Source: Candidatus Schekmanbacteria bacterium (GTDB taxonomy: Bacteria; SZUA-182). Taken from it: DNA of 64,000 nucleotides. Of the stretch, positions 1-64,000 are shown piece after piece; position 1 is the first letter of the stretch, and each line of letters starts with the position of its first letter. Position numbers and translations under genes: made by a program. The notes beneath the pieces were generated by a model. It saw only the letters and a program-made list of their open reading frames with translations. It had not been told where the DNA came from and did not search any database. The stretch spans positions 1,779-65,778 of the forward strand of contig JACRJN010000131.1 of NCBI GenBank assembly GCA_016235675.1, in the 5' to 3' direction.

Positions 1-262
1 AAATAATATCCAGGACGCGCCGGATTTGGTGGTGGAGATAATTTCCGAAAGCAGTGTCTACCGGGATTCGGTAAGAAAAAAGAAGCTTTATGCCAAATTC
101 GGGGTCAAAGAATTTTGGCTGGTCGCTCCTGAAGAAAAAATGATTGAGGTTTATAATTTGGACAATCAGAGGTACCGTTTAAGCCAGACTTGTTTTTATA
201 ATGACAGCCTGGAATCTCAGGTTTTGAAAGGCTTCAGGATGGATTCGAAGGATATTTTTTAA
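1..262 (+). CDS. Uma2 (DUF820) family putative endonuclease, 5'-truncated by the window edge
   Basis: The C-terminal sequence ('VVEIISE..YRDSVRKKKLYAKFGVKEFWLVAPEEKMIEVY') is closely similar to the C-terminus of the complete Uma2 ORF at 4772..5323. Confidence 0.6.
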   Translation, partial: NNIQDAPDLVVEIISESSVYRDSVRKKKLYAKFGVKEFWLVAPEEKMIEVYNLDNQRYRLSQTCFYNDSLESQVLKGFRMDSKDIF

Positions 263-359
263 ATCAATCACTATTCATTTGTCATGGTTTCGGCTTTTCT
301 CAAGCCAAACATCCTAACATGAGTTTTATACTCTTTTCGAATACTCCGGGGAATAAGTA

Positions 360-590
360 ATGAAAAATTTAACACGAATCACATTTGACCCCAATGTGAT
401 GGGCGGGAAGCCTTGTATCCGCGGATTACGCCTCACTGTTGGAACTATTGTCGGGCTGATTGCTACAGGATATTCCACTTCAGACATTTTGAAAGCATAT
501 CCTTATCTGGAAGAAGACGATATTCGCGAAGCACTTAAATACGCCGCCTGGCGAGTTGAAGAAATCGAATTACCCTTGGTACCCATATGA
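360..590 (+). CDS. DUF433 domain protein (antitoxin-like)
   Basis: 76-aa ORF 'FDPNVMGGKPCIRGLRLTV..' typical of DUF433. Its stop overlaps the start of the next ORF in an ATGA arrangement. Confidence 0.55.
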   Translation: MKNLTRITFDPNVMGGKPCIRGLRLTVGTIVGLIATGYSTSDILKAYPYLEEDDIREALKYAAWRVEEIELPLVPI

Positions 591-949
591 AACTGCTGGT
601 TGATATGAATCTTTCTCCTATGTGGATTGAATTTTTCGAACAGCAAGGGTGGCAAGCACTTCATTGGTCAACAGTGGGTAACCCTCGTGCAACTGATATT
701 GCAATCATGGATTGGGCGCGGGAAAATGATTATGCGGTATTCACTCACGATCTTGATTTTGGAGCTTTGTTAGCGGCTACCAGCGCTGACAAACCTAGTG
801 TTATTCAGGTACGTACACAAGATATTATGCCCCATAGTTTAGGCCCCAAATTAGTAAAAATATTACGGCAATATGAATCAGTTCTTAATAATGGGGCATT
901 GCTAACTGTGGACGAAAACAAGTCCAGAGTGCGTATTCTACTTTTTTAG
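587..949 (+). CDS. DUF5615 / PIN-like (Mut7-C) domain protein, putative toxin partner of DUF433
   Basis: 120-aa ORF 'LLVDMNLSP..' with a 4-bp overlap onto the upstream DUF433 gene; the DUF433-DUF5615 pairing is a known arrangement. Confidence 0.55.
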   Translation: MKLLVDMNLSPMWIEFFEQQGWQALHWSTVGNPRATDIAIMDWARENDYAVFTHDLDFGALLAATSADKPSVIQVRTQDIMPHSLGPKLVKILRQYESVLNNGALLTVDENKSRVRILLF

Positions 950-984
950 CAACCAGTAATCACATAATTTCTAGGATTAAACCT

Positions 985-2025
985 ATGATCAACATTTCTT
1001 ACTCCGATTTAAGCTCCGATCCCCGCTATGCCTTTGCAGTCGGGAAAATCAGGGCGCTGGAAACAAACCTGATCACCAATCAGCAGGTCAACCGCCTGCT
1101 GGAGACCAAAGACGCCAACGCTCTTTGGTCGGAATTGGGCAATAACCGGGATTACGAAGCGCATCTGGCCCAATTCTACGATCCCCAGGATTTCGAAGCG
1201 GTTTTAAGCAGCGAATTGAAAAGGGTCTACGCTTTAACCCTGGGGATTTCTGCTGAGCGCACCGCCTTGGAATTACTGGCTTTGCGCCATGATTTCCATA
1301 ACTGCAAGGTTATCTCCAAAGCGTGCTTTTTGGGCGAAGATACGGATAGCAATTTAAGCCCCTTAGGAACGTGTCCCCCCAAAGAATGGGAACAACTCAT
1401 GGTTGCAGAAAAAGAAGCCGGGCTGTGCCGGTTACCTGCCGATTTGATGCAGATTGTCCGTGATGTGCAACAACAGCTTATCGACGAACAAAACTTGCGC
1501 CGGCGGGACATAATCTGGGATCAGGCGCTTTATCAATACCTCTCCCGCCACGCCGAAAAATCGAAAAATCTGTTTGTGCAGACCTGGCTGAAAATTCGCA
1601 TCGACGGCCTCAATTTGCTGACATATGTGCGCTGTATCAGGCAAAAGTCGGATAAGGGATTATTGAAGCTGGCTTTAATTGACAGCGGCACGATAGCTTG
1701 TGAAAAATTGCAAAACGCCTACGAAGGCGGCTTGGAAACGCTGGCCTCCCTGCTCTCCCCTACTCCCTATGCGGGAATGATCCAGGAGGGGCTGGCCTGT
1801 TATAAGCGGGACAACTCCTTTTCCTGTCTGGAAAAACTGTTCGACGATTACGAGATGGAGTTTTTGTCGCAGGCGCGCTATGTCTCTTTGGGGGTGGAGC
1901 CGTTGTTTGCCTATTTATTGGCCAAGGAGACCGAGATCAAGGTCTTGCGCATCCTGCTGGTGGGCAAAATAAACCGCCTGGACAAGACGGAAATCAGTAA
2001 ACGGGTAAGGAGGCTTTATGCCTAA
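985..2025 (+). CDS. atpC: V/A-type ATP synthase subunit C
   Basis: 346 aa. N-terminal 'YAFAVGKIRALETNL' and C-terminal 'EIKVLRILLVGK' match the subunit C (d) family. The gene lies immediately upstream of subunits F, A and B. Confidence 0.7.
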   Translation: MINISYSDLSSDPRYAFAVGKIRALETNLITNQQVNRLLETKDANALWSELGNNRDYEAHLAQFYDPQDFEAVLSSELKRVYALTLGISAERTALELLALRHDFHNCKVISKACFLGEDTDSNLSPLGTCPPKEWEQLMVAEKEAGLCRLPADLMQIVRDVQQQLIDEQNLRRRDIIWDQALYQYLSRHAEKSKNLFVQTWLKIRIDGLNLLTYVRCIRQKSDKGLLKLALIDSGTIACEKLQNAYEGGLETLASLLSPTPYAGMIQEGLACYKRDNSFSCLEKLFDDYEMEFLSQARYVSLGVEPLFAYLLAKETEIKVLRILLVGKINRLDKTEISKRVRRLYA

Positions 2026-4112: not shown

Positions 4113-4172
4113 CATAGGGTAGGGTGGGCTGCGCCCACCATTTTGATGGGCACAGCCCACCCTACAGGCTAC
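4113..4172. repeat. GTAG-headed palindromic element (family J: GTAGGGTGGGCTGCGCCCACC inverted pair)
   Basis: An inverted pair 'tagggtgggctgcgcccacc' / 'ggcacagcccaccctaca' is seen here. Related copies occur at 4648..4745, 11945..12035 and 29222..29246. Confidence 0.8.
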
Positions 4173-4192
4173 ATGAAAAAAAGGGTTGCTTT

Positions 4193-4432
4193 GTGGAGAT
4201 AAATTTTTCTCGTCATGCCAAGAGAAGAGCCAGGTTATACAAAATCCCTGACTCAACAATTCTTAATCTTTTGGAATCGAAAATTTGGAACCAGGGAAAT
4301 CATGAGATTACAAAAATTGTTGCGGGGATTAAATACCCATTGAAAATTGTGTTTAATGTTGAAGACCATATTTTAACTGTAATAACTTGCTATCCTTTAA
4401 AAAAAGGAGCTAAGGGTGAAAGTATATTATGA
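4193..4432 (+). CDS. DUF4258-like protein (putative toxin of a DUF4258/DUF2283 pair)
   Basis: 'FSRHAKRRARLYKIPDSTILNLL' resembles the DUF4258 H-A-x-x-R motif. The tracked ORF begins inside the upstream palindrome, so the first in-frame start after the repeat (GTG at 4193) was chosen. The 3' end overlaps the DUF2283 gene. Confidence 0.45.
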   Translation: MEINFSRHAKRRARLYKIPDSTILNLLESKIWNQGNHEITKIVAGIKYPLKIVFNVEDHILTVITCYPLKKGAKGESIL

Positions 4433-4643
4433 CGACGAAGCAGACGCCCTTTATCTAAAATTGGGAGAAGAAACGCCGGAAGGGGTAATAGAGCTAGCCG
4501 AAGGGGTTAATCTGGACACCACTGCTGAAGATAAGATAGTAGGGATAGAAATTTTGAATGCCTCCAAGAAGATTGATTTAAAAACAATATTATCTTATAC
4601 CCTGGAGTTTGAAAAGGATTTAATAACCCAAGAAGCGGCCTGA
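4416..4643 (+). CDS. DUF2283 domain protein (putative antitoxin partner)
   Basis: 75 aa 'MKVYYDDEADALYLKLGEE' is a characteristic DUF2283 N-terminus. It uses a GTG start with an AAGGAG RBS. Confidence 0.65.
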   Translation: MKVYYDDEADALYLKLGEETPEGVIELAEGVNLDTTAEDKIVGIEILNASKKIDLKTILSYTLEFEKDLITQEAA

Positions 4644-4647
4644 TAGT

Positions 4648-4745
4648 AACGTAGGGTGGGCTGTGCCCACCAAAGGCTAACCAGGGCAATTTGAACAGCG
4701 ACATATGGGCGAAAAACAAAAGGTTGGCAAAGCCCACCCTACATA
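4648..4745. repeat. Family J GTAG palindromic element pair
   Basis: 'gtagggtgggctgtgcccacc' ... 'gcaaagcccaccctacat' form inverted arms around a ~50-nt spacer. Confidence 0.8.
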
Positions 4746-4771
4746 AATAAAACTCAAGGAGGTGAGCACCC

Positions 4772-5323
4772 ATGCAGGGTTTGGCGATAAAGCAAAAAAA
4801 ATATACTTATCAGGACTATTTAAAAACCCCGGACGATATGCGGTATGAACTAATTGAGGGAGATTTAATAATGACACCGGCGCCATATATTCGACACCAA
4901 AGAATTTCCAGTAACTTGTTTTTCAAGATGAGAGATTTCACAAGCACCAATAATTTAGGCGAGGTTTTTTACGCTCCCTGCGATGTCTACTTAGACGATG
5001 AGAATGTTGTTCAGCCGGATATACTCTTCGTTTCCAAGGAGCGTCTGGAAATTATCACGGAAAAGAATATCCAGGGTGCGCCGGATTTGGTAGTGGAAAT
5101 TGTTTCGGAAGGAAATGCTTACCGGGACACCATACAGAAAAAAAGACTATACGCCCGTTTCGGGGTGAAAGAATATTGGATAGTGGCACCGGGGGAAAAG
5201 ATGATCGAACAATATCATTTGAATAAGCAGGGTTACCAATTGATTAGGACTTATTATCATGAGGATCATCTCATATCCCAGGAATTGCAGGATTTCACGA
5301 TTGAATTGAGGGAGGTTTTTTAA
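4772..5323 (+). CDS. Uma2 (DUF820) family putative endonuclease
   Basis: 183 aa with a strong RBS. It is a paralogue of the truncated ORF at 1..262. Confidence 0.7.
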   Translation: MQGLAIKQKKYTYQDYLKTPDDMRYELIEGDLIMTPAPYIRHQRISSNLFFKMRDFTSTNNLGEVFYAPCDVYLDDENVVQPDILFVSKERLEIITEKNIQGAPDLVVEIVSEGNAYRDTIQKKRLYARFGVKEYWIVAPGEKMIEQYHLNKQGYQLIRTYYHEDHLISQELQDFTIELREVF

Positions 5324-5327
5324 AAAA

Positions 5328-5387
5328 TGTAGTTACCTGATTTATCAGGGAACGGCCTGCTGGTACCCGATAAATCGGGTAACTACA
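5328..5387. repeat. Family I REPIN-like element (outer stem GTAGTTACC/GGTAACTAC, inner hairpins CCTGATTTATCAGG and CCCGATAAATCGGG)
   Basis: The palindromic structure is directly visible. A second copy lies at 25116..25173. Confidence 0.85.
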
Positions 5388-5415
5388 AATGGCAGCATAA
5401 CACAGGAGGAATAAA

Positions 5416-6816: not shown

Positions 6817-6927
6817 GGCTTGAGTAATGAGATTTGAGGTAAAATCACAGGCAGGATGCCTGTGCTACCGTAGGGCGAATTTGTATTCGCCCTCTTTCCC
6901 TCAAGCCTCAAGTCTCAAGCCTTTTTA
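6796..6927. repeat. Composite palindrome: GAGGCTTGAGGCCTGAGGCTTGAG heptamer-like arms enclosing a family C hairpin
   Basis: Arms at 6800..6830 and 6895..6925 are reverse complements. The internal 'cacaggcaggatgcctgtgctacc' is a family C hairpin. The element sits between the convergent atpB and PHP genes and is a likely terminator. Confidence 0.75.
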
Positions 6928-8045: not shown

Positions 8046-8305
8046 GGTAGCGTTCTCAATAAGAGACCTAAAGCGTCAAAAGCGAGGCAGCCTTATCGCC
8101 GAAGCAATCTCATGTGCACGCATGGAGATTGCTTCGCTTCGCTCGCAATGACGCTTCAGGTCTGCGGTATTTCTACGCTACCAATAATTTTACACTAAAC
8201 AGTCATGCTCCTTCAGAACGACACAAAACATGAAAACATTCCCCCCTGCCGTAGTGCCGGGGCTTTAGCCCCGGTAGTTCAGCCCTGAAGGGCTGGAACT
8301 ACGAA
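8046..8305. repeat. Composite intergenic element: family D long hairpin (GTCATTGCGAG../GAAGCAATCTC) plus a family B'-like GTAG element
   Basis: 'gcgtcattgcgag..gaagcaatctc-loop-gagattgcttc..ctcgcaatgacgc' is flanked by 'ggtagcgttctc'/'tctacgctacc'. It is followed by 'gtagtgccggggctttagccccggtagttcagccctgaagggctggaactacg'. Confidence 0.8.
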
Positions 8306-8335
8306 ACTACGAAACACAAACAGGCATTTAGCCTT

Positions 8336-9049: not shown

Positions 9050-9099
9050 TGCTAAACTCCACTTAGTACGCGATTTTATAAATAACTAAGATTATTTTT

Positions 9100-9290
9100 T
9101 AAGTGTCATTGCGAGCTTAAGCGAAGCAATCTCTACCCATGCGTCTGAGATTGCTTCGGCGATAAGGCTGCCTCGCTTTTGACAGAATAAACTCAGTTAG
9201 TTATAAAATCGTGTATTAGTTACTTCCGAGATACGAGGTATGAAAACTAACTCTTCCGTATCTCGTACCTCGTATCTCGTATCTCGGTAT
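9100..9290. repeat. Composite: family D hairpin followed by a GAGATACGAGGTACGAGATACG heptamer-array hairpin
   Basis: 9105..9185 holds cattgcgag/gaagcaatctc palindromes. 9222..9290 reads 'ccgagatacgaggta..cgtatctcgtacctcgtatctcgtatctcgg'. Confidence 0.8.
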
Positions 9291-10016
9291 TTACAGCTTC
9301 GGCTGACGTAATTTAAACGCCGTCCCCTTATAAAAATGCCCCTTTTGCCGCTTCAAATTTTCCTCTGCGGCGACTTTCCATCCTGAGGCATTTCCGGCTT
9401 GTTCATGCATTGGCGCCAGACTTAAAAATTTCTGATAAAAAAAGACCGCTTTCTGCCAGTAGTTTAAATCATAATCATAAACTACGGCCAGGTTAAAACA
9501 AGCCGCCGCGGAATTATTTTTAGTCAGCGTTTCCATATATGCGCTGACCGCCTTCCGATATTCTTTTTTCAGCAAATATTGGTTGCCGGAAACCAGGTTC
9601 ACGTCACCAACATCGGTCATAATCAATTCCTGCGCCTCCGGGCGTTTTAATTGCGGATCAATCGCCTGATCGGGATAAACCTTTTGTTTTACCTCTATAA
9701 GCCAGGCTTTCACCTGAGGGACATCCGCCGAATTCGGCTCCAGTTCCAGAAATTGCTGATAAAGGTGCATGGCCTTGGCATAAAAATCGAGCCGGTGATG
9801 ATAAGTGATGGCCAGATTATAAACGGCATCGGAGGATTTCTTAAGCTGCAAAGCCTCTTTATAGGAACGGGCGGCTTTTTCATATTGACCGCTTTCAAAA
9901 AAATTATTGCCCTGCAAAACCAAATCGGGAACATCCAGGACTTTACCGCCTGCATGGGGCACCAGACAAAAAATAAAGCAGACGACTAAAATCAGCCATC
10001 GGGAAAGATATTGCAC
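9291..10016 (-). CDS. Secreted TPR-repeat protein
   Basis: Has a signal peptide and TPR-like repeats; it is a paralogue of the ORF at 8336..9049. Confidence 0.65.
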   Translation of the reverse strand: MQYLSRWLILVVCFIFCLVPHAGGKVLDVPDLVLQGNNFFESGQYEKAARSYKEALQLKKSSDAVYNLAITYHHRLDFYAKAMHLYQQFLELEPNSADVPQVKAWLIEVKQKVYPDQAIDPQLKRPEAQELIMTDVGDVNLVSGNQYLLKKEYRKAVSAYMETLTKNNSAAACFNLAVVYDYDLNYWQKAVFFYQKFLSLAPMHEQAGNASGWKVAAEENLKRQKGHFYKGTAFKLRQPKL

Positions 10017-11892: not shown

Positions 11893-12102
11893 CACAAAGC
11901 ACACGAAGATCACGAAGAAAAAATAAATAGTTTAATTAAATATCATAAATAGTAGGGTGGGCTGCGCCCACCATTACCTCAAACTCATGAATATTCTTAA
12001 AATGGTGGGCGCAACCCACCCTACAAACTGCATTACCGTAAAAAAATAGCATTTGTAATTCTTCGTGTGCTTCGTGCGCTTCGTGGTGAAAAGAAATTTA
12101 CC
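11893..12102. repeat. Family E composite palindrome (CACGAAG heptamer arrays flanking a family J GGTGGGC palindrome)
   Basis: 'cacaaagcacacgaagatcacgaagaaaaa' at 11893.. is mirrored by 'ttcttcgtgtgcttcgtgcgcttcgtggtg' at 12058... Between them lies a 'tagggtgggctgcgcccacc...ggtgggcgcaacccaccctaca' palindrome. Confidence 0.8.
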
Positions 12103-12880: not shown

Positions 12881-12892
12881 AATGTCATTCCC

Positions 12893-12978
12893 GCAATGAT
12901 TTTAAGCGGGAATCTGGTTTTAACTGCTTGAAAAACCATATCCCCGATAAAAACATTCGGGGATGACAGATAGTTTTG
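12893..12978. repeat. Family G element (GTCATTCCCG..CGGGAAT and CATATCCCCGATAAA..CGGGGATGACAG hairpins)
   Basis: A second copy at 28262..28372 is nearly identical. Confidence 0.8.
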
Positions 12979-14339: not shown

Positions 14340-14618
14340 GGGGGAAAGAAAAGAGCGGGAACTTTAATATTGCCCTACGTCCGGTAGCACAGGTATCTTG
14401 CCTGTGTCATGGTCTTTCGGCTTGTCCTCAAGCCGAAAGACCCAAAAAATGTAGTCCCGTGGCTTTAGCCACGCAATTTCAGCCTTAAGCTGAGACTAAA
14501 GACACGTTCATCCGGAAACACCTGAACTTATACTGAACCGGGTTAACCATTTGTGAGTCGTGATTGCATGGCTTTATGCCATGAAGATCAGCCCTGAAGG
14601 GCTTTAGACTACGATATT
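14340..14618. repeat. Cluster of family C and family B-like GTAG hairpin elements
   Basis: 'ggtagcacaggtatcttgcctgtg', 'gtagtcccgtggctttagccacg' and 'cagccctgaagggctttagactacg' are visible in this span. Confidence 0.7.
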
Positions 14619-15962: not shown

Positions 15963-16007
15963 TTACTTCCCTTTGCTCATAATATATCTGATCTAATCAT
16001 AATACCG

Positions 16008-16115
16008 TTCACTTAACGTAGCGCAGGGCTTTAGCCCTGCTTATGGGGTGGCTTCGGCGGGAACGAAGGAGCAGACCTAAAGGTCTGCACTACGTTAAGT
16101 GAACAGTCTTTAATT
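16008..16115. repeat. Family A REPIN-like element (GTAGCGCAGGGCTTTAGCCCTGC / GCAGACCTTTAGGTCTGCGCTAC, outer CTGTTCACTTAA TIR)
   Basis: Other copies lie at 16876..16951, 21590..21828, 57137..57265 and 59815..59985. Confidence 0.85.
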
Positions 16116-16237: not shown

Positions 16238-16335
16238 ATTCGTAGCACGGGGGTTTATCCCCCGTTTGCAGCGCCTGCTTACGGGAGATGAACTCCCGCG
16301 CTACATTAATCTTTGATAGCGAATTGGTATGAGTT
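16238..16335. repeat. Family H element (GTAGCG + GGGGTTTATCCCC / GGGGGATAAACCCCC hairpins)
   Basis: Related copies occur at 19150..19258 and 43470..43562. Confidence 0.75.
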
Positions 16336-18923
16336 TAAATAACAATATTAACCAGCTTTCCGCCGGCAACTATTACCTTGCGGATTGGCTTGCCTTGGAT
16401 AAATTCCCGGATGCGGGCATCTGATAAGGCGGATTGTTTGATCGTCTCTTCCCCCGCGTCTTTAGGCAGGTTGATCTTGCTGCGTAATTTGCCGTTAATC
16501 TGGATGACGACGGTGACCTCATCCTCGCTGGCGATGGCTTCATCGTAAACCGGCCAGGGCTGCTGGCTGATACTGGCGGGATAGCCCAATGTCCGCCACA
16601 ATTCCTCGCTGATATGGGGGGCGAAGGGGGCAAGCAGTAATAACACACTGCGTAAAGCCTCCTTCAAGACTAAATAAGCCTCATCATCCTTCGGTTCGAA
16701 CTGATAGAGGGTGTTGACCAGTTCCATCACGGCGCTGATGGCGGTGTTGAAGTGGAAGCGGTCTTCGATGTCCCGGCCTACCTTGCGGATGGTTTGATGC
16801 ACCCGGCAGCGCAATTGTTTGTTGGCCGGGGTCAACTGGACGGGAATCAGATCATTGCCGATCGCCGTCAATTTTTCACCTGAAGATGTCGTAGCGCAGG
16901 GCTTTAGCCCTGCCTCCCCGGTAGCAGACCTAAAGGTCTGCGCTACATGTTTATTGTTCTTGGTATCCCGAAGAGACATAGGTGTTTCGGCATAGGTATT
17001 GACCAGCCGCCAGACCCGTTGCAGGAAGCGGTAAGAGCCTTCCACCCCTTCCTCGCTCCAATCCAAATCCTTTTCCGGCGGGGCGGCAAACAAGGAAAAG
17101 AGGCGCGCCGTGTCTGCTCCGTACTTTTCCAGCAAATCATTGGGATCAACTACATTACCCTTGGATTTGCTCATCTTCGCCCCATCCTTGATAACCATGC
17201 CTTGAGTAAGCAGGTTAGTGAAGGGTTCGTCATAAGTCAAGTAGCCCAAATCACGCAAAACTTTGTTGAAAAAGCGGGCATAAAGTAAGTGCAGCACGGC
17301 ATGTTCGATCCCGCCCACATATTGATCCACCGGCAGCCAGTAATTGACCGCTTTTTCATCAAAAGCGGCATTAGTTAACCGGGGAGATGTGTAGCGGGCA
17401 AAGTACCAGGAGGATTCGACAAAGGTATCCAGGGTATCGGTCTCCCGTTTAGCCGGTTTACCGCAGGCCGGACAGTCGGTATTGACGAATTCGGCGATCG
17501 AAGGCAAAGGGGAATGGCCGTCTTCGGGAAATGCCGTATGGGTGGGCAGAACTATCGGTAACCGTTCCGCTTGCTCCGGAACGGTTCCGCAAGCATCGCA
17601 ATAAACTATCGGAATGGGCGCACCCCAGAAGCGCTGGCGGGAGATGCCCCAATCGCGCAGACGATAATTGACCTTACGGCAGCCGATCTCGGCCTTCTCC
17701 ATAAAATCGGCGATCGCTTCGCGGGCTTGTGGGCTGGTCAGGCCACTAAATTGACCGCTGTTGACCAGATTGCCATCGTCTACATAGGCTTCGGTCATTG
17801 TTTCCGCTTGCAATGCACCATCAGTGGGTTGAATTACCACCCGCAAGGGGATATTGTACTTGCGGGCGAATTCAAAATCCCGCTGGTCATGAGTGGGCAC
17901 AGCCATAACCGCCCCGGTGCCGTAACCCATCAGGACGAAGTTAGCCAGATAGACCGGAATATACTCCTGGGTCATCGGATTGAGGACGTAGCAGCCGCAG
18001 AATATGCCCTCCTTTTCCGGCTCCGCCTGACCGCGCTGCTGTACCCGGTGGCTTTTCTTGAAATTCTCCACAAAGATTTGTAACGTTTCAGGATTTGGGC
18101 AATGCTGTCTGATTATGTCCACTAAAGGGTGTTCGGGGGAAATGGAAACAAAGGTAGCGCCGAAAATAGTATCGACACGGGTGGTAAAGACGGTCAGCGA
18201 TTCGCCTAAGCCTTTGAGTGGAAACTTGATCTCCATCCCCTGGCTTTTGCCGATCCAGTTGCGCTGCATCATTAATACCTTTTCCGGCCAGCCGGGTAGC
18301 TGATCAGTAAACTTGAGCAGTTCGTCGGCATAGGCGGTGATGCGGAAAAACCAGCTTTCCATCGCCCGCGGCTCAACCACACTGGAACAGCGCCAGCACA
18401 AGCCCTCCTCCACCTGCTCGTTAGCCAGAACGGTCTGGCAGGAAGGGCACCAGTTGACCGGGGAAAGCTTTTTGTAGACCAACCCCTTCTCATACATCTG
18501 CAAGAAGAATTGCTGCTCCCAGCGGTAATAATCCGGCAGACAAGTCGCCAATTCCCTATGCCAGTCGTAGCTATAACCCATTCGTTTCAATTGACCGCGC
18601 ATATAATCGATATTGCTTGCCGTCCATTTGGCCGGATGGCTCTTATGGGCAATGGCCGCATTCTCCGCCGGCAGCCCGAAAGCGTCCCACCCCATCGGAT
18701 GCAGAACGTTAAAGCCCTTCATCCTCTTGTAACGGGCGATCACATCCCCGATCGAGTAATTACGCACATGCCCCATATGAATCCGCCCGGAGGGATAGGG
18801 AAACATCTCCAATAAGTAGTATTTGGGAAGATTAGGGTCTTCCGTCACCCGGAAAATCCGCTCCCTCTCCCAATACTCCTGCCATTTGGCCTCGATTTCT
18901 TTATGCTGATAATGCTGATTCAT
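16335..18923 (-). CDS. leuS: Leucine--tRNA ligase
   Basis: 862 aa with HMGH ('HMGHVRNY') and KMSKS motifs. It contains an in-frame family A repeat at 16876..16951. Confidence 0.95.
16876..16951. repeat. Family A REPIN-like element embedded in-frame in leuS
   Basis: 'gtagcgcagggctttagccctgcctccccggtagcagacctaaaggtctgcgctac' lies inside the leuS reading frame. It is translated as '..[21 protein letters not shown]..'. Confidence 0.85.
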
Positions 18924-19149: not shown

Positions 19150-19258
19150 TATAATTTATTATGCTTTAATGTCGCGTTGGGGTTTATCCCCAACAGCAGA
19201 CGCAGGAACCTTGCAGCGGAAGCGGGGGATAAACCCCCGCGCTACGTTCAGGAGAGAC
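19150..19258. repeat. Family H element
   Basis: 'gttggggtttatccccaac...gcgggggataaacccccgcgctacg' is visible here. Confidence 0.75.
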
Positions 19259-20287: not shown

Positions 20288-20356
20288 GCTAAAACCGAGA
20301 TACGAGGTACGAGATACGTAGAAAAGCATTTTCGTATCTCGTATCTCGTGCCTCGG
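20288..20356. repeat. GAGATACGAGGTACGAGATACG heptamer-array hairpin
   Basis: 'ccgagatacgaggtacgagatacg-loop-cgtatctcgtatctcgtgcctcgg' is the same word family as 9222..9290. Confidence 0.8.
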
Positions 20357-20484
20357 TAATTGAGGCACTTTTCTTGCAGTAACATTGCTAACTATAAATT
20401 AACGGTACAGGCTTGTAACGGGGGGCTGGTTTTTTTCGAGCCTCGCAAGCCTGGAAACAGCAAATTTCAAACAGGAGGTTCGGA

Positions 20485-21589: not shown

Positions 21590-21828
21590 TATTAAGACGT
21601 AGCGCAGGGCTTTAGCCCCAATACTGTTCCCCTAACGTAGCGCAGACCTTTAGGTCTGCTCCGGAGTGCTCACAAAGCCACCCCATAAGCAGGGATAGAA
21701 GCCCTGCGCTACGTCTTAAGTGAACGGTATTGGCTTTAGCCCTGCTTCCGGACACACATCAAACCCGGTAGCCGGTAGCAGACCTAAAGGTCTGCACTAC
21801 GTTAGGGGAACAGTAAAGGGGCGGCTAT
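21590..21828. repeat. Two interleaved family A REPIN-like elements
   Basis: The GTAGCGCAGGGCTTTAGCCC / GCAGACCTTTAGGTCTGC units are repeated twice with CTTAAGTGAACAG outer repeats. Confidence 0.8.
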
Positions 21829-40984: not shown

Positions 40985-41100
40985 AAAGCGTCATTGCGCG
41001 CGAAAGCGAAGCAATCTTCGTTCGTGCGTCTGAGATTGCTTCGGCAATAAAGCCGCCTCGCAATGACATTTGCATTATCCATTGTCAATTGTCCATTATC
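40985..41100. repeat. Family D long hairpin plus CCATTGTCAATTGTCCATTATC heptamer-like tail
   Basis: 'gtcattgcgcgcgaaagcgaagcaatcttcgttcgtgcgtctgagattgcttcggcaataaagccgcctcgcaatgac'. Confidence 0.75.
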
Positions 41101-42540: not shown

Positions 42541-42700
42541 TTTTGTTGTCAGTTGTCAGTTGTCGGTTTTAATTCTTTAACTGACAACCGACAACTGACA
42601 ACTTTTTTTCATCACCAGCCGTAGTCCCAGCCCTTTAGGGCTGAATTTCCGGGGCTAAAGCCCCGGCACTACGGCTACGGCTACGGCTGACAATCGCCTG
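42541..42700. repeat. TGTCAGTTGTC heptamer-array hairpin followed by a family B GTAG element
   Basis: 'ttttgttgtcagttgtcagttgtcgg..ccgacaactgacaact' is followed by 'cgtagtcccagccctttagggctgaatttccggggctaaagccccggcactacggctacgg'. Confidence 0.8.
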
Positions 42701-43469: not shown

Positions 43470-43562
43470 GCAAAATGTAGCGTTGGGGTTTATCCCCAAC
43501 ATTGCGGACGCAGGAGATACCCCTACGTAAAAAGCGGGGGATAAACCCCCGCGCTACTTTAA
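43470..43562. repeat. Family H element
   Basis: 'tgtagcgttggggtttatccccaac...gcgggggataaacccccgcgctac'. Confidence 0.8.
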
Positions 43563-45866: not shown

Positions 45867-46103
45867 ATGATTATTAAAAAAAATATTCAAAAGGAAACAT
45901 CGTTGGAATTGCCTTGGCATTTATTAGAAAAAGCCCATCTTAAGGGGAAAATAAATATTATTGTGGAAGAAAATGAAATCCTGATTAAAAAACAAACTAA
46001 AAAATCTAAGGTTGTCGATGAAATGATCGGTCTGGGAAAGGGTATTTTTAGTGAAAACTCGCTAACTCTTCAGAAAAAAATTCGGGAGGATTGGAAACTG
46101 TGA
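45867..46103 (+). CDS. Putative antitoxin (VapB-like) of a PIN-domain TA pair
   Basis: 78 aa; its 3' end overlaps the PIN gene. No strong domain signature was recognised. Confidence 0.4.
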   Translation: MIIKKNIQKETSLELPWHLLEKAHLKGKINIIVEENEILIKKQTKKSKVVDEMIGLGKGIFSENSLTLQKKIREDWKL

Positions 46104-46531
46104 AAAGAATTGGTCTCGATACCAATATTTTTATGAGCGTTTTTTTGGAAGAAAAGGGGAAATTAGAAGCTTGCCTGGCGATTTTACAAAATATTCATGA
46201 CGGTATTCTGGAAGGGATTATCAGTGTAATTACATTAGTAGAAATAGCCGTACTTTTTTACCAAAAAAATGAATATCTAAAAGCTAAGAAAGCCTTATCC
46301 CTTATCAACTCTCTTTCAAATATTGCCATTATTGACATAACTCCACATTTGGCTTTAAAAATAGCTGCTATAAAAACTTCAGATAAATTATCTGTTGCGG
46401 ATGCAATTATTCTTGCCACAGCGGTACACGCATCTGCGGAAGCTTTTTTAACGTATGACCATGACTTTGCCAAAGTAAAAACCATCAGGTGCATTAAACC
46501 GGAAGATTATCTTCAAGAGATGAATATTTGA
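46100..46531 (+). CDS. PIN-domain ribonuclease (VapC-like toxin)
   Basis: 'IGLDTNIF' N-terminal acidic motif and a 'TYDHDF' C-terminal motif. Confidence 0.75.
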   Translation: MKRIGLDTNIFMSVFLEEKGKLEACLAILQNIHDGILEGIISVITLVEIAVLFYQKNEYLKAKKALSLINSLSNIAIIDITPHLALKIAAIKTSDKLSVADAIILATAVHASAEAFLTYDHDFAKVKTIRCIKPEDYLQEMNI

Positions 46532-50094: not shown

Positions 50095-50310
50095 TTTTGT
50101 CATTGCGAGCGACCGGAGGGAGCGAAGCAATCTCGGCGTCCGTTGCCATAACGAGATTGCTTCGCTCCGCTCGCAATGACTATCGGTTAGATATTTCGGC
50201 GTGTCCCCACGCCGAAATTATCAAGGGGTAACGTTCCCCCTTTACGGTTTCGGTGTGAGGACACACCGAAATATCAAATCACAGGCTGAAAGCCTGTGCT
50301 ACCGGAAAGA
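50093..50310. repeat. Cluster of 5 tandem hairpins (family D, ATTTCGGCGTGTCCCCACGCCGAAAT, TTTCGGTGTGAGGACACACCGAAA, family C)
   Basis: All five palindromes are directly visible downstream of the ABC exporter operon. Confidence 0.8.
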
Positions 50311-51375: not shown

Positions 51376-51692
51376 CCACGAAGGCCACAAAGCACACGAA
51401 GAAAAAATTTCGAGAGTGTTCACCTAAAGATAGATATTTATATATTTAAAAACGTAGTCCCGTGGCTTTAGCCGCGTATTTTCAGCCCCTTAGGGCTGCA
51501 AAAAAAGGTGTGTTCGTATGGAACGCGCCGAAAGTATTGAGAGTCATAATTGCAGGGCTAACGCCCTGAAGTTCAGCCCTGAAGGGCTGGGACTACGATA
51601 TTACTGGGACTACGATATTATATTGATGTTTTGGCCAATCCCCAGGCCGAAAAATTTCTTCGTGCTCTTCGTGTGCTTCGTGGTTGGTAATT
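51376..51692. repeat. Family E composite (CACGAAG heptamer arrays flanking family B GTAG hairpins)
   Basis: 'ccacgaaggccacaaagcacacgaagaaaaa' at 51376 is mirrored by 'ttcttcgtgctcttcgtgtgcttcgtgg' at 51658. Inner hairpins are 'gtagtcccgtggctttagccgcg' and 'cagccctgaagggctgggactacg'. Confidence 0.8.
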
Positions 51693-52928: not shown

Positions 52929-52995
52929 AAAATCGTTGACGGTTGACGATTGTCGGTTATTATTTTTTTAACTGACAACTGACAACCGTCAACAG
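52929..52995. repeat. TGACGGTTGACGATTGTCGG / CTGACAACTGACAACCGTCAAC heptamer-array hairpin
   Basis: Same 7-bp-periodic word family as the element at 42541..42610. Confidence 0.75.
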
Positions 52996-53545: not shown

Positions 53546-53977
53546 ATTATCACCACGAAGAACACGAAGGGCACGAAGAATGGTATGAATAGGATAAAGG
53601 TAAAGAGTGAAGGTAAGGGACTTAGAAGATATTGACATACCCCCCACCCTAACCCTCCCCCGCAAGGGGCATAGGCGCTAACTTAGGCATTTAAAGTTCC
53701 CTCTCCCCCTGGGAGAGGGTTAGGGTGAGGGTACCATAATTTAATTTTTTAAGCTTTTGTACCATCATCCCGACCTTCTCCCAAGGGGAGAAGGAGCCTA
53801 AGTTAGCGCTTATGCCCGCAAGGGGGGAGGGAATTTATCCCCCTCCCCCCTTGATGGGGGAGGGTCGGGGTGGGGGTGATTATCGCGATCCTGAAACGGT
53901 ATGTTTGAAAATTTCAAGTCCCTAAACACCCTTTTCCCTTTTTCCCTTCGTGGCCTTCGTGCTCTTCGTGGTGAATC
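53546..53977. repeat. About 430-bp nested palindrome bounded by CACGAAG heptamer arrays (family E)
   Basis: 'caccacgaagaacacgaagggcacgaag' at 53552 is mirrored by 'cttcgtggccttcgtgctcttcgtggtg' at 53945. Inner pairs are 'cccccaccctaaccctcccc'/'ggggagggtcggggtggggg' and 'gcataggcgctaacttaggc'/'gcctaagttagcgcttatgc'. Confidence 0.8.
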
Positions 53978-57136: not shown

Positions 57137-57265
57137 GGTTCACTTAAGACGTAGCGCAGGGCTTTAGCCCTGCTTATGGCGGCTTTGGTAGGCACTCCGG
57201 AGCAGACCTAAAGGTCTGCTCTACGTTAAGTGAACAGTCTGCGCTACGTTAAGTGAACAGTATTG
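57137..57265. repeat. Family A REPIN-like element with a duplicated right end
   Basis: 'cttaagacgtagcgcagggctttagccctgc..gcagacctaaaggtctgctctacgttaagtgaacag' is followed by a second 'gcgctacgttaagtgaacag'. Confidence 0.8.
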
Positions 57266-59814: not shown

Positions 59815-60062
59815 GGCGGGGGTTTCCCCCAATGCTGTTGACTTAAGACGTAGCGCAGGGCTTTAGCCCTGCTTAAGACGCGGCATTTGACCCCTGTGGC
59901 TGTAGCAGACCTAAAGGTCTGCGCTACATAAACATCAAAACAAAATTCCTTAAGTCAACAGCATTGGGGGTTTCCCCGCCCTTTAATTAACTTAAGCCGT
60001 AGCCGTAGTGCCAGGGCTTTAGCCCTGGAAATTCAGCCCTAAAGGGCTTTAGACTACGAAAT
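59815..60062. repeat. Family A element nested within a CAATGCTGTTGACTTAAG inverted pair, followed by a family B element
   Basis: Outer 'gggggtttcccccaatgctgttgacttaag' is mirrored by 'cttaagtcaacagcattgggggtttcccc'. The family B copy lies at 59995..60062. Confidence 0.8.
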
Positions 60063-60159
60063 TTAAGAGCTTATCCGTAAATAACCGTTACCTTTGGTTT
60101 CCCCCTTTAGCAAAGGGGGATTAAGGGGGATTTGCAAATTGTAATTTCCATAAAGAATT

Positions 60160-60302
60160 TGGCAGCGTTCTCAATCAGAGACCCAAAGCGTCATTGCGAG
60201 GCAGCCTTATCGCCGAAGCAATCTCATCCACACGCATGGAGATTGCTTCGCTTCGCTCGCAATGACACTTCGGAGTCTCCCTATTTCTACGCTACCAAGA
60301 AT
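60160..60302. repeat. Family D long hairpin with GGCAGCGTTCTC / TCTACGCTACC outer stem
   Basis: Near-identical to the architecture at 8046..8190. Confidence 0.8.
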
Positions 60303-60521
60303 TTAATCTTTTAACAATATGTCGTGTTCGAATAATTCTTAAGGTTAGATTCAATTTGAAAATCTCCCCAACCCCTCTTTGCCAAAGAGGGAAAAGTTAT
60401 TTACGGATATATTCTAAGTCTTTCTATTTCTACGCGACAATTTTTAAATAAATATTCTCTGTGTCTCAGTGGCTCTGTGTGAAAAATTTCTCCTGAATTT
60501 TAATTTAGCACCTACCCCATT

Positions 60522-61490
60522 ATGAAAATAATCTTTTGTGGCACGCCGGAATTTGCCCTCCCCAGCTTAAATACCCTACTGACGTCCAAACATCAGGTTT
60601 TGGCGGTGATTACCCCACCCGATCGCCCCGCAGGCCGGGGTAAAAAGCTCAAACCCTCTGCAATTAAGGAAGCCGCCTCAACTCATAATTTACCCATCTT
60701 GCAGCCGGGAAAAATCGGATCGGCGGATTCGCTGGAAAGCATGCGGCAATTGAATCCCGACGCCTTGGCAGTTGTCGCCTTCGGACAACTTCTCCCCCCC
60801 CCGGTACTGAATTTACCCCGCTACGGATGCATCAATGTCCATGCCTCCCTGCTTCCCAAATACCGGGGAGCGGCTCCCATCAATTGGGCGATCATCCGGG
60901 GGGAAACCCAAACCGGGGTCTGCACCATGCGGCTGGATAAAGGGATGGACACCGGCGATGTTATCTTATGCAAGGCTGTCGATATTAGGTCGGAGGAAAC
61001 CGCCGGAACATTACACGACAAGCTGGCCCCGCTGGGCGCGCAATTATTAGCGGAAACATTGGATCAGATCGAAGCGAATACCGCGCTTTATCATCCTCAA
61101 GACCATAACTCGGCCACCTATGCGCCGCTCTTGGATAAATCGATTACCATCATCGACTGGAAACAAAGCGCCGAACAAATCGACTGCCTGGTGCGCGGGT
61201 TAAATCCCTATCCCGGAGCAAAAACATTTTTGGACGATCTGCCGCTGAAAATTCTTACGGTGGAAATCAGCAAGCTAGCTAGCCCGGCCCTACCGGGACA
61301 AATAATTCAGCAAAATCGACGGCAGGGAATTTTAGTCGCGACAGGCAGCGCTCCCATTTGGCTGAAAACAATTCAGCCGGCCAACCGCCAGCCTATGACC
61401 AGTGGCGATTTTCTTTCCGGATTGCGTGAGTCTTTAATAAATAAGGAATTCCGTAGTCCCAGCCCTTTAGGGCTGAATCTCCAGGGCTAA
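60522..61490 (+). CDS. fmt: Methionyl-tRNA formyltransferase
   Basis: 'MKIIFCGTPEFALPSL' and 'HASLLPKYRGAAPI' are Fmt motifs. The last 12 codons and the stop are provided by the family B repeat. Confidence 0.9.
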   Translation: MKIIFCGTPEFALPSLNTLLTSKHQVLAVITPPDRPAGRGKKLKPSAIKEAASTHNLPILQPGKIGSADSLESMRQLNPDALAVVAFGQLLPPPVLNLPRYGCINVHASLLPKYRGAAPINWAIIRGETQTGVCTMRLDKGMDTGDVILCKAVDIRSEETAGTLHDKLAPLGAQLLAETLDQIEANTALYHPQDHNSATYAPLLDKSITIIDWKQSAEQIDCLVRGLNPYPGAKTFLDDLPLKILTVEISKLASPALPGQIIQQNRRQGILVATGSAPIWLKTIQPANRQPMTSGDFLSGLRESLINKEFRSPSPLGLNLQG

Positions 61491-61512
61491 AGCCCTGGCA
61501 CTACGACTGACA
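61455..61512. repeat. Family B REPIN-like element overlapping the fmt 3' end
   Basis: 'cgtagtcccagccctttagggctgaatctccagggctaaagccctggcactacg'. Confidence 0.85.
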
Positions 61513-62155: not shown

Positions 62156-62165
62156 TTTCTCGAAT

Positions 62166-62226
62166 AACGTAGTCTAAAGCCCTTTAGGGCTGAACCTCCA
62201 GGGCTAAAGCCCCGGCACTATGGTAG
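62166..62226. repeat. Family B REPIN-like element
   Basis: 'cgtagtctaaagccctttagggctgaacctccagggctaaagccccggcactatgg'. Confidence 0.8.
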
Positions 62227-62282
62227 GGGAAATTTTGAAACACTCAAAAATATATACAAACCGACAATATTATGCTATACTT

Positions 62283-62660
62283 TAAAAATTATGGGGGCGA
62301 CTGGTTTCGACGGGGCTATTGAACCTCCAACTGCATGTCGAGCATTCTACTGACTCGTAAATCCGGTGGAAAAACAATAAACGCAAACTACTATGGCGAA
62401 AGCCAATTAGCTTTAGCCGCCTAATTAGTGCGGCTTCGTCCACCCTGCTTCGCTGATGGAGCGGGATGTGGGCGGCATATACATCAGATAGCGGATCCGC
62501 TTCGCCTAAGGGCGGACGAGCGAAACTACACTTTGGCTGGCCTTTCTTTGATCCTGCCGCCGGGAGCGGAAAGAGGCGAGAAACAATCCAGCGGCTAAAC
62601 ATGTAGAAGTTGCCGGCAAGGTACTCTCGGACGCGGGTTCGATTCCCGCCGCCTCCACCA
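62283..62660 (+). ncRNA. ssrA: tmRNA (SsrA)
   Basis: 5' GGGGGCGACUGGUUUCGACGGGG pairs with 3' ..CGCCUCCACCA, including a G3:U70 wobble. A T-arm GGGUUCGAUUCCC is present. The tag ORF GCA AAC TAC TAT GGC GAA AGC CAA TTA GCT TTA GCC GCC TAA encodes ANYYGESQLALAA. Confidence 0.85.
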
Positions 62661-63059
62661 GTTTGTCGGTGGGATGTCTATATATTTTGGATAGTTACAA
62701 GCTGCCCAAAATTTCCAAACCGCAAACGTCATTAAAACGTCATTATTCCGGTTCAAAAAACCGAGAGTAGTGGCGTTTTTTTGTATGAATACAATGAGAT
62801 AAGGGAAATTTTTGTGCCCCCATAGTTGTTATAATTTCCCCTAAAACGACATAATTTTCCATTCCGTTTCTCATAATATTGCAAATTAGCAGATCGATTG
62901 CCTTATTTGCAATATATTTTAATTAGATTACTCATTTTTTAACCTTGACAACTTCCCCCTGGATAGATAAGCTTCAATTGTTGACATATTAATCAAGCAT
63001 CTGACGGTTCTAATTATAAATACACCTTACAATTTTTCTAGGGAAGGAGAGAAATTTAT

Positions 63060-64000
63060 ATGAAAAAAATGGGTATTAAAGTAAATTCTGCATTAATTTG
63101 CCTATTTCTGGCTGTTTTCGGCATTTTACCCCCCCCATCGTCATTTGCATCTTCATTGGCAGGCCCGCCCCCAAGTACGGAAGAATTGGCGCAAAAAGCC
63201 GATTTACTCGTGATCGGTCGTGCAACCTCAAAAGAGGCGGAATGGGATGAACAACATAATACAATCAATACATACTATCGCATTGAAGTAGAACAAATTA
63301 TCAAAGGGAAAGTTGTCCCCGATCTTGTCGTCAGATACGAAGGGGGAGAAGCGGAAGGAATGGGTACGTGGCGTTCCGATGTTAATCCGGATATATTGAA
63401 AATCGGTGACCAGGTAATTCTTTTTTTGCAGCCTGACAACCAGTACCCGTATTCTGTAACAGGTGGGGAAAATCAGTATATTAGCATTAAAAACCATAGG
63501 GTTGATTTCGGGAAGATATCTGAATTAGATCGATGGGTGGGTCAAAGAGAGGAACAAACGGTGGAGCAGTTTGTTCAAAATATCAGGGAGCGTTTGGAAC
63601 TGCCGTCTCCGATTTATATAACTCCCGCTCCTTCTAAAGAAAGACCTCAGCCCACTCCAAAGGAGCCGCCTCAGTCCGCTCAAACATCCGGGACAGCTCC
63701 CGCTGAAAAAAAAGAGGAGCTGCCTCAGTCCGCTCAAACATCCGGTACGGCTCCCGCTGAAAAAAGAGCGCAGCCGCCTTCCCCCGCTCAGAGAATGCTC
63801 ATCCCTAAGCAAGACAAATCGGATCATTTAATTCCGGATAGTCATAAGAAATTAGCTCCTTCTCCCCAAATAAGCATTAGTTCTGGTTTGCCTAACTTAA
63901 AGGCTTATGTACCCAGCGGTTGGGGGAGCGCATTGGTTGTCTCTTCGGTTTCCGGCACAAGCTATGACGGGCCTAACCTTAATAATTGTAATAACACTTA
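63060..64000 (+). CDS. Hypothetical secreted protein with proline/threonine-rich tandem repeats (3' end beyond the window)
   Basis: An ATG at 63060 follows a GGAAGGAGAG RBS. An uninterrupted frame of more than 310 codons runs to the window edge and is absent from the ORF track because it has no stop. It has a signal peptide 'MKKMGIKVNSALICLFLAVFGIL' and a tandem 'PQSAQTSGTAPAEKK' repeat. Confidence 0.6.
   Translation, partial: MKKMGIKVNSALICLFLAVFGILPPPSSFASSLAGPPPSTEELAQKADLLVIGRATSKEAEWDEQHNTINTYYRIEVEQIIKGKVVPDLVVRYEGGEAEGMGTWRSDVNPDILKIGDQVILFLQPDNQYPYSVTGGENQYISIKNHRVDFGKISELDRWVGQREEQTVEQFVQNIRERLELPSPIYITPAPSKERPQPTPKEPPQSAQTSGTAPAEKKEELPQSAQTSGTAPAEKRAQPPSPAQRMLIPKQDKSDHLIPDSHKKLAPSPQISISSGLPNLKAYVPSGWGSALVVSSVSGTSYDGPNLNNCNNT

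Follow-up and report, generated by a model that had tools for sequence, protein, structure and literature searches.

To our knowledge, repetitive extragenic palindromes (REPs) and the hairpin-forming doublets built from them (REPINs) have been studied almost wholly in Proteobacteria. The current view in that group is that each REPIN population has one vertically inherited REP-associated tyrosine transposase (RAYT), and in Escherichia coli the bacterial interspersed mosaic elements (BIMEs) are composed of alternating Y and Z REPs. Superfamilies of REPs that carry GTAG, genomes that hold several such families, and dimers lying within genes were described by Di Nocera, De Gregorio and Rocco (2013, PMC3733652). 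The present analysis concerns a dense population of GTAG-headed palindromes in a 64-kb stretch of DNA (the window), which is nearly all of a 65,938-bp contig from a metagenome-assembled genome (MAG) labelled Candidatus Schekmanbacteria bacterium. Very probably, these repeats are REPs of the GTAG-tagged superfamily, mostly arranged as REPIN-like doublets with their heads outward, that were spread by RAYTs presumed to be encoded elsewhere in the genome.

The enzyme TnpAREP binds the folded, single-stranded REP and cuts at a CT or CA beside the hairpin, and GTAG is needed for binding or cleavage; RAYTs generally contact GTAG or use it as a guide, and the Group 3 systems read particular loop bases (PMC8266576). 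RAYT cassettes (REPtrons) with two REP types have been reported (PMC8266576), and strictly vertical inheritance has been described for the Group 2 and Group 3 RAYTs (PMC3337134, PMC5581495). The window differs from these systems in several respects. It comes from an uncultured candidate phylum, palindromic repeat makes up ~40% of its non-coding DNA, and eight GTAG families occur together. One of the families is identical to copies found across MAGs labelled as different phyla, and the nearest sampled relatives are without any of the repeats.

Abundance and Distribution of the Repeats

Hairpins are enriched in the window over shuffled sequence. GTAGY occurs 166 times against an expected 96.9 ± 9.4 (1.7-fold enriched), and perfect hairpins (stem ≥6, loop 3–6) number 182, compared with 59–70 in shuffles. 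Units in which GTAG is followed by a hairpin within 0–4 nt, all located by GTAG anchoring, amount to 55 (~0.86 per kb) versus 2–12 (mean ~5) in 20 shuffles. Self-BLAST of the window gave 214 repeat high-scoring segment pairs over 3,309 nt; the shuffled sequence gave none. Chance palindromes are ruled out by these shuffles of hairpins, GTAG units, and self-BLAST matches, and CRISPR-like arrays were rejected because the spacing is irregular and several unrelated units are present.

The catalogue holds 35 GTAG-headed composite elements in eight families, namely A, B, C, F, H, I, J, and the singleton K. At least five more palindromic families lack the GTAG head (E, F-core, L, M, N, and inverted heptamer-repeat arrays). 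GTAG elements account for 4.4% of the window (2,798 nt), a share that rises to 6.4% (4,078 nt) when every palindromic repeat is counted. With intergenic gaps defined mechanically as those of at least 45 nt, a palindromic repeat is present in 29 of 36 and a GTAG-headed repeat in 21 of 36. Within this contig alone, the 35 elements form a high-copy, dispersed, and mainly extragenic pattern.

These counts bear on an earlier interpretation made from the letters of the window without database searches (the sequence-only reading). It had placed repeats in nearly every intergenic region and estimated about 60 copies, both of which agree with the numbers above, and the self-alignment that it proposed as a check returned the expected repeats. 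The example sequences that it quoted are present for families A (16018, 16891, 57151, and 59850), B (42621, 61453, and 60005), C (28235), H (43477), I (5328 and 25116), and J (4119 and 11952). Where it had given more than 10 families with the GTAG head and 10–15% of the window, it was too high by a factor of about two; the number of families passes 10 only if headless palindromes are added.

Architecture of Units, Doublets, and Families

Each unit consists of GTAG, 1–3 unpaired bases, a stem of 6–9 bp, and a loop of 3–7 nt. Most units are paired heads outward (GTAG-hairpin ... hairpin-CTAC), which gives 27 doublets with spacers of 3–145 nt, and singletons exist too. A constant loop (TTTA, TTTAT, or ATTTAT) combined with stems that carry compensatory changes characterises families A, B, H, and I; families C and J instead have a fixed stem and a variable loop. 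The two arms of a doublet are systematically unlike, with GCAGGGC in A1 where A2 has GCAGACC, and CAGCCC in B1 where B2 has CCAGGGC or CCGGGGC, while the same arm is almost identical between copies of one family. A bias in the A1-to-A2 orientation relative to transcription was considered and rejected, the copies being split 3 vs 3 by inspection.

When folded as single-stranded DNA, the elements give z scores of −4.7 to −10.5, far below shuffles. The fold of family B is a three-way junction, since its non-identical arms make a long REPIN hairpin impossible, and the folds of families A, H, I, and J favour one long imperfect hairpin. The general architecture put forward in the sequence-only reading, an outer GTAG...CTAC stem enclosing two hairpins, holds for the doublets and is the form that family B takes when folded.

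The families also differ in what is conserved around the hairpins. A full-length family A copy is ~105 nt long and contains a conserved spacer and ~27-nt terminal inverted repeats, both of which are kept in four copies. Family A is the only one whose terminal inverted repeats reach past the GTAG; the palindromes of families B, C, H, I, and J stop at GTAG ± 1 nt. Spacers vary from copy to copy in families H, J, and C. Elements are often layered: C-3 has another inverted repeat and an E palindrome within it, A-6 sits within a palindrome with arms of ~35 nt, and the F elements are a GTAG-headed stem around a GCAATGAC/GAAGCAATCTC core. Degenerate copies carry heads altered to GTCG, GTAAC, CACTAT, or TGGCAGCG, and F-2, C-5, and C-6 are half elements.

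Short tandem duplications (6–22 nt) of the GTAG/CTAC foot and a few flanking bases were observed at the ends of seven elements (27018-27029, 42667-42684, 8296-8310, 51589-51613, 57218-57259, 59999-60008, and 21768-21779). Either cleavage and strand transfer that recurred at these sites or slippage at the foot of the hairpin may have left them.

Association with RAYTs in Other Genomes

An exact 25-mer of family A, ACGTAGCGCAGGGCTTTAGCCCTGC, is found in 41 stretches whose MAG labels span at least six phyla-level names (Vicinamibacterales/Acidobacteriota, Desulfobacteraceae/Thermodesulfobacteriota/delta proteobacteria, Brocadiales, Actinomycetota, Thermomicrobiales, and Pseudomonadota). The flanks have a GC content of 41–69%, and a second hairpin that differs from the 25-mer is often its partner. 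At one locus (L018), exact family A repeats lie upstream, downstream, and inside a gene encoding a 200-aa Y1 protein. This protein scores 99.3 bits on the NCBIfam model for REP-associated tyrosine transposases (REP_Tyr_transpos, NF047646; cutoff 80) and 49.9 bits on Pfam Y1_Tnp; its IS200 score of 36.5 bits falls short of the cutoff of 55. Judged by its sequence, this enzyme of another genome is a RAYT and not an IS200/IS605 TnpA. It has 738 relatives at E ≤ 1e-5, including proteins of Brocadia, Kuenenia, Smithella, and Stahlbacteria. The best match of the RAYT profile in the PDB is the E. coli TnpAREP 4ER8 (5e-12), a Group 2 enzyme and the only TnpAREP among the PDB matches, with IS200/IS605 transposases behind it.

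The RAYT genes of Brocadia and Kuenenia are bracketed head-outward by GTAGGGCAAGGCTTTAGCCTTGC-type hairpins. A metagenome scan supplied 80 further RAYT loci, of which 68 had enough flank to be evaluated. A GTAG hairpin in + orientation lies upstream of the gene in 54 of these 68, one in − orientation lies downstream in 44, and both sides carry one, heads outward, in 41. GTAG hairpins number 4.96 per kb in the 300 nt nearest the RAYT gene and 0.18 per kb beyond 600 nt, a 28-fold difference. Upstream and downstream hairpins are unlike each other in 37 of the 41 two-sided loci, and the difference is typically the 'GGC against ACC' inner-stem pattern that also distinguishes the A1 and A2 arms of the window; L201 has the exact GGGC/GACC inner-stem pair of A1/A2. 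Because RAYT-flanking hairpins differ in the way the A1 and A2 arms do, the window doublets are best read as RAYT cassettes minus the gene, with the distinct left and right ends kept. These cassette-like left and right hairpins have a common GTAG foot, outer stem, and loop and differ in the inner stem.

Repeats of the window's types flank RAYT genes at several loci: A-type in L018, L146, L160, L168, and L201, H-type in L203 and L204, and K-like in L180. Each locus fetched from other genomes carries one REP type, and 34 head types occur among 72 RAYT loci. RAYTs that share a head type are more alike than those that do not (mean 50% vs 40% identity; Mann-Whitney p = 1e-23, with pairs that are not independent). 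The GTAG that the families have in common is presumably a mark of the enzyme family and no sign of one common enzyme. The common mobilisation machinery that had been suggested for the unrelated families of the window consequently survives as one family of enzymes, and the 34 head types and the higher identity within them favour a separate cognate RAYT for each REP family. Outside the window, family H has a single match in IMG/VR, and family J-type hairpins occur in 72 IMG/VR stretches of mostly 57–63% GC.

About 30 of 120 RAYT cluster representatives contain 1–4 in-frame A-type REPs encoding the peptide VAQGFSPA and variants (proteins P0121–P0204; L018 5600-5760; L046 2059-2174; L047 2357-2382). 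All lie at one position, just ahead of the LWQxxYYDH motif, and the catalytic Tyr motif downstream is intact. GTA-GCG-CAG is the one frame without stops, the other two meeting TAG, which explains the reading frame and not the shared position. A loop that tolerates insertion, an insertion hot spot, or a hairpin with a self-regulatory role could account for the shared site.

Two C-type hairpins 2,293 nt apart were observed around a 500-aa open reading frame (ORF) in three IMG/VR contigs (L059 5925-8241, L060 7099-9415, and L062 3402-5718). By eye, this ORF resembles a phage major capsid protein.

Insertions, Empty Sites, and Relatives

The leuS gene of the window has 37 additional in-frame codons, the core of which is the A-2 doublet and which are missing from five of five aligned homologues (64–72% identity). 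It is the only clear in-frame internal insertion. In fmt (B-7) and a Wzy-like gene (C-6/A-8), the elements overlap the 3' ends of the ORFs and are not internal. C-4 and H-2 lie in mechanical N-terminal ORF extensions ahead of a Pfam domain and are therefore probably extragenic; I-2 probably lies in such an extension too, with no Pfam domain to place it, and is likewise probably extragenic. The proposal that elements occupy several coding regions accordingly holds for leuS, and the other cases are ORF 3' ends or mechanical N-terminal extensions.

A second insertion is visible at 21599-21800, where a complete A element lies within the A1 hairpin of another A element. None of the 27 doublets is flanked by a direct repeat of at least 5 nt, which fits HUH-type transposition and argues against the DDE type; the sole exception to the missing target-site duplication is an 11-nt duplication at this nested site.

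Contigs of the closest leucyl-tRNA synthetase (LeuRS) relatives (37.5 kb of unique sequence), which share 67–72% LeuRS identity with the window, hold GTAG hairpins at chance level only. The V-ATPase A and B genes are 1.3 kb apart in the window (4113-5415), and the gap contains J-1, two small ORFs, J-2, a Uma2-family gene, and I-1; in one relative (L219, 5156-8301), the two genes abut. As the closest relatives are repeat-free, the comparison of sequences points to a lineage-specific, fairly recent expansion. The V-ATPase operon of Brocadia (L042–L044 1-4474) was seen to contain a RAYT gene between the F and A genes.

Probable Mobilisation and Alternative Explanations

Most probably, the repeats spread through Y1 (HUH) tyrosine transposases of the RAYT type, whose genes would lie in another part of the genome and which recognise a folded single-stranded hairpin together with its GTAG. 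Strand transfer after a cut at a dinucleotide close by would let copies spread without target duplication. The cleavage chemistry is presumably that of the E. coli, Stenotrophomonas, and Marinomonas enzymes, from which it is taken over by analogy. The genome thus presumably encodes RAYTs that act, or formerly acted, on the window copies. Several paralogues are expected, one per REP family, each family probably having its own cognate enzyme. Copies would accumulate in intergenic DNA and within one another, and intragenic copies would persist only if they had landed in the sole open frame. The anatomy of the elements, the absence of target-site duplications at the 27 doublets, and the flanking of RAYT genes in other genomes all agree with this REP/REPIN–RAYT interpretation, which the sequence-only reading had also offered.

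Several observations weigh against it. In the window, no Y1 gene was found by tblastn with 120 RAYT proteins or by a scan for HUH and Tyr motifs, and none of ~50 ORFs has a transposase domain, in line with what the letters alone had suggested. No Schekmanbacteria-named protein is among the best 120 of the 738 RAYT relatives. A cognate RAYT was not found for families B, C, I, and J; the loci fetched by the C and J patterns have no Y1 gene by tblastn or motif search, and families B and I have no match in IMG/VR scans outside the window. At the nested A-in-A site, the 11-nt GGCTTTAGCCC stands on both sides, a duplication unexpected for Y1/HUH enzymes, and the ~27-nt terminal inverted repeats and conserved spacer of family A look like those of a MITE, a miniature transposable element with inverted repeats.

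The lack of a RAYT in the window and among the named relatives would also suit relic REPs, which were spread by RAYTs in the past, have no active RAYT now, and are either inert or co-opted by the host as mRNA-end hairpins or protein-binding sites. Mutated heads and half elements are further traits of such a population. A relic origin is nevertheless improbable, given the near identity of arms across copies of a family, the whole element nested in another, the intact leuS insertion, and the closest relatives that are entirely without repeats; moreover, the window is only ~2% of a typical genome. The inverted repeats and spacer of family A and the 11-nt duplication are what classical MITEs would show, in which a DDE transposase acts on the terminal inverted repeats and the GTAG hairpins are incidental. 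Such an origin is very unlikely. Duplications of fixed length are not seen, the palindromes of five families end at the GTAG, like hairpins bracket Y1 and not DDE genes in 54 of 68 loci, and the window has no transposase of any kind. DDE-type MITEs were rejected on the absence of target-site duplications at the 27 doublets.

Host function offers another account, in which the elements are locally evolved signals (terminators, RNA-stability elements, or protein-binding sites) that are alike by selection and not by copying. Most elements do lie downstream of genes or between co-directional genes, C-type hairpins flank the capsid-like gene in phage contigs, and side-functions of REPs have been published (PMC3733652). 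However, copies share 20–110 nt, non-pairing spacers and flanks included, one copy is in-frame within leuS and one within another copy, and the identical 25-mer occurs in genomes of 41–69% GC. By inspection, no T run follows the hairpins, and no Rfam family matches them. A host function is compatible with a mobile origin, and selection in place of copying can hardly be credited. Spread by RAYTs remains the preferred explanation, and it can be extended to a single widespread RAYT/REP cassette lineage with unlike left and right hairpins, and often with REPs in frame within the transposase gene, that moves horizontally between phyla and of which at least seven systems recently colonised this genome. 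The identical 25-mer across phyla, the repeat-free relatives, and the single REP type at each outside locus leave room for this extension, which is put forward tentatively and is doubtful as it stands.

Catalogue of Elements, Headless Palindromes, and Gene Content

The elements are listed in Table 1. Apart from those with a GTAG head, the F-core is a ~85-nt palindrome (GTCATTGCGAGC...GAAGCAATCTC...GAGATTGCTTC...CTCGCAATGAC) present in seven copies with no GTAG head of its own (8100-8165, 9092-9183, 33198-33275, 34520-34595, 40986-41070, 50098-50182, and 60195-60265). Three of the copies are enclosed by a GGTAGCG...CGCTACC outer stem, and F-core motifs are found in loci from other phyla too (L004, L006, L024, and L156).

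Table 1. Palindromic elements of the window, with positions counted from its first nucleotide; z, z score of the fold
Element	Position	Strand	Description	Remark
J-1	4119-4165		Family J doublet GTAGGGTGGGCTGCGCCCACC...GGGCACAGCCCACCCTAC	Right after V-ATPase A gene stop; z −7.1
J-2	4651-4742		Family J doublet, 50-nt spacer	
I-1	5329-5386		Family I doublet GTAGTTACCTGATTTATCAGG...CCCGATAAATCGGGTAACTAC	z −7.9
C-1	6846-6868	−	Lone family C unit; head abuts K-1	
K-1	6870-6893	+	Lone unit GTAGGGCGAATTTGTATTCGCCCT	Similar REP flanks RAYT in L180
F-1	8046-8182		137-nt long palindrome; outer stem GGTAGCGT...ACGCTACC round GTCA..GCGAG/GAAGCAATCTC core	z −6.4
B-1	8251-8310		Family B doublet, B2 arm then B1; GAAACTAC foot duplicated	
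F-core copy	9092-9183		GTCATTGCGAGC...GAAGCAATCTC palindrome without GTAG outer stem	Others at 33198-33275, 40986-41070, 50098-50182
J-3	11952-12024		Family J doublet	
E-1	12883-12970		TGTCATTCCCG...CGGGGATGACA palindrome, no GTAG head	E-2 at 28274-28365 inside C-3
C-2	14384-14406	+	Lone family C unit	
B-2	14451-14612		Expanded family B element, four hairpins, ~95-nt spacer	
A-1	16001-16110		Full-length family A: ~27-nt terminal inverted repeat AATACCGTTCACTTAACGTAGCGCAG, A1 hairpin, conserved spacer, A2 hairpin	z −7.3
H-1	16242-16304		Family H doublet	
A-2	16891-16946		Family A doublet inside leuS (16335-18923, − strand)	
H-2	19171-19245		Family H doublet, left head degenerated to GTCG	Upstream of patatin domain start
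A-3	21599-21800		Family A element, A1 hairpin split by A-4 insertion	GGCTTTAGCCC both sides of insert
A-4	21620-21731		Complete family A element, reverse orientation, nested in A-3	
I-2	25117-25172		Family I doublet	
B-3	26972-27029		Family B doublet, GGCTAC foot repeated	Three-way junction, z −4.7
C-3	28236-28427		Family C doublet	Spacer: second inverted repeat and E-2 palindrome, three nested layers
C-4	29090-29217		Family C doublet, 82-nt spacer	Mechanical N-terminal extension of PglD-like ORF; z −6.3
J-4	29228-29248	−	Lone family J unit	
C-5	29872-29919		Family C doublet, left arm imperfect	
A-7	29925-29947	−	Lone A1-like unit tandem to C-5	
F-2	34497-34595		Partial family F: left GGTAGCG head and core, right outer arm missing	
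C-6	35868-35915		Degenerate family C doublet	3' tail of Wzy-like ORF
A-8	35920-35942	−	Lone A1-like unit tandem to C-6	Same C+A composite as 29897-29947
B-4	42621-42684		Family B doublet, GGCTAC foot three times	z −5.0
H-3	43477-43557		Family H doublet	z −5.2
M-1	50187-50278		Pair of ATTTCGGCGTGTCCCCACGCCGAAAT-type hairpins, no GTAG head	Related hairpin 14411-14442
C-7	50280-50302	−	Lone family C unit	
B-5	51454-51613		Expanded family B element, four hairpins, 17-nt foot duplication	
A-5	57139-57259		Full-length family A, right end with 22-nt tandem duplication	
A-6	59826-59972		Family A doublet nested in longer palindrome, arms ~35 nt	z −10.5
B-6	59999-60057		Family B doublet, GCCGTA head repeated	
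F-3	60160-60296		Family F long palindrome, left head degenerated to TGGCAGCG	
B-7	61453-61504		Family B doublet	Over last ~12 codons and stop of fmt
B-8	62169-62221		Family B doublet, right head degenerated to CACTAT	72 nt upstream of tmRNA gene

Tandem heptamer and nonamer arrays (CGAGATA, GTTGTCA, CCACGGAAG, and CACGAAG) occur as inverted pairs at 9219-9294, 20294-20357, 42545-42603, 52935-52993, and 31497-31522/31675-31700, with further sites at 51379-51402/51655-51684, 12063-12092, and 53550-53578. Such pairs frequently enclose an entire intergenic region along with the other repeats in it, and the arrays presumably resemble the short tandemly repeated repetitive (STRR) sequences of cyanobacteria. 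Headless palindromes with G or C runs, of a CCCTCTCCCCCTGGGAGAGGG type and a TCCCCCTTTGCTAAAGGGGGA type, were noted at 53641-53864, 31527-31660, 60097-60133, and 60368-60393; an L-type motif is present in L024 as well.

The genes of the window are otherwise ordinary. A V-type ATPase operon, leuS, rsmB, recJ, fmt, an exosortase/extracellular polysaccharide (EPS) cluster, and ABC transporters are accompanied by a few toxin-antitoxin-like genes and a transfer-messenger RNA (tmRNA) gene. GC content is 42–50%, and the LeuRS is 100% identical to MBI5789077.1. The small toxin-antitoxin/defence-like genes (DUF5615/PIN-like, Uma2, AbiEii-like nucleotidyltransferase, and PIN types) are dispersed among the housekeeping genes (587-949, 4772-5323, 22077-22652, and 46091-46531) and often adjoined by repeat-rich gaps. 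At gathering score, Rfam 15 matches the window only at the tmRNA (62293-62660), leaving the repeats unmatched. That gene is of the one-piece type, with the predicted tag ANYYGESQLALAA (ARAGORN; Rfam 194.9 bits). A ~50-nt direct repeat in an ORF (63661-63765) encodes a repeated ...PQSAQTSGTAPAEKK... segment and is unrelated to the palindromes.

Significance

Should several RAYT paralogues be confirmed in this genome, it would be a natural system for asking how several REP–RAYT pairs co-exist without cross-talk and whether such systems spread horizontally. If the horizontal cassette extension were true, the REP load of the genome would rank among the densest and most diverse seen, in contradiction to a solely vertical inheritance of REPINs and RAYTs. 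Annotators should mask repeats of this kind, because they create spurious ORF extensions, in-frame insertions (leuS, fmt, and the Wzy-like gene), and broken MAG assemblies.

Comparison with Known Systems

The closest described relatives are the GTAG-tagged superfamily (PMC3733652), whose members are also 20–25-nt stem-loops that leave GTAG unpaired at one end and have 6–9-bp stems and sub-families with complementary changes. Head-to-head dimers with structured spacers, several families per genome, and intragenic dimers coding for 20–30 extra residues are common to both, as are REP arrays around EPS clusters; the superfamily's RAYT genes flanked by GTAG repeats have their counterpart in the RAYT loci of other genomes. 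Unlike the genomes of that survey, the host here is a Schekmanbacteria member, a candidate phylum outside it, and the window packs eight families into 64 kb, more than any other fetched locus, each of which has one type.

The REPIN–RAYT systems of Pseudomonas and Enterobacteria (Bertels & Rainey 2011; PMC3337134, PMC5581495) have two inverted REPs and a spacer as the repeated unit, which may hold for the window doublets as well, and their single-copy Y1 transposase gene flanked by the same repeats has its parallel in the RAYT loci of other genomes. Different families co-exist there, each with its own RAYT, as is presumed for the window. In contrast, the window arms are systematically non-identical (A1/A2 and B1/B2), and a REP sequence of the window is common to several phyla and missing from the nearest relatives, which is hard to square with strictly vertical RAYT inheritance.

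Among the Group 3 REPtrons, those of Marinomonas (Mb) and Stenotrophomonas (Sm) (Corneloup et al. 2021, PMC8266576) also place a short perfect palindrome ~2 nt from GTAG. Mb has GTAG, 2 nt, a stem, and a TTTA loop, as in families A and B, although its stem is of 5 bp and those of the window are of 6–9 bp. Cleavage at CT or CA by Group 3 enzymes needs GTAG and specific loop bases. The E. coli BIMEs (summarised in PMC2817692) share two REP types in opposite orientation and some copies that cluster with other repeats; their sequences are unrelated, and the window has no bulged stem. The IS200/IS605 elements have a related Y1 HUH enzyme (PDB matches 2XM3 and 2FYX), no target-site duplication, unlike subterminal hairpins at the left and right ends, and a 5' tetranucleotide guide. 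They differ in that the RAYT clade is nearer to TnpAREP than to IS200/IS605 TnpA and scores above the NCBIfam RAYT cutoff, and in that the window hairpins are dispersed in large numbers without a gene.

Each main feature of the window has thus already been described for GTAG REPs (PMC3733652), and the novelty is modest. What is unusual is the host phylum, the density of the repeats, the number of families resident together, and the identity of family A across phyla combined with its absence in the nearest relatives.

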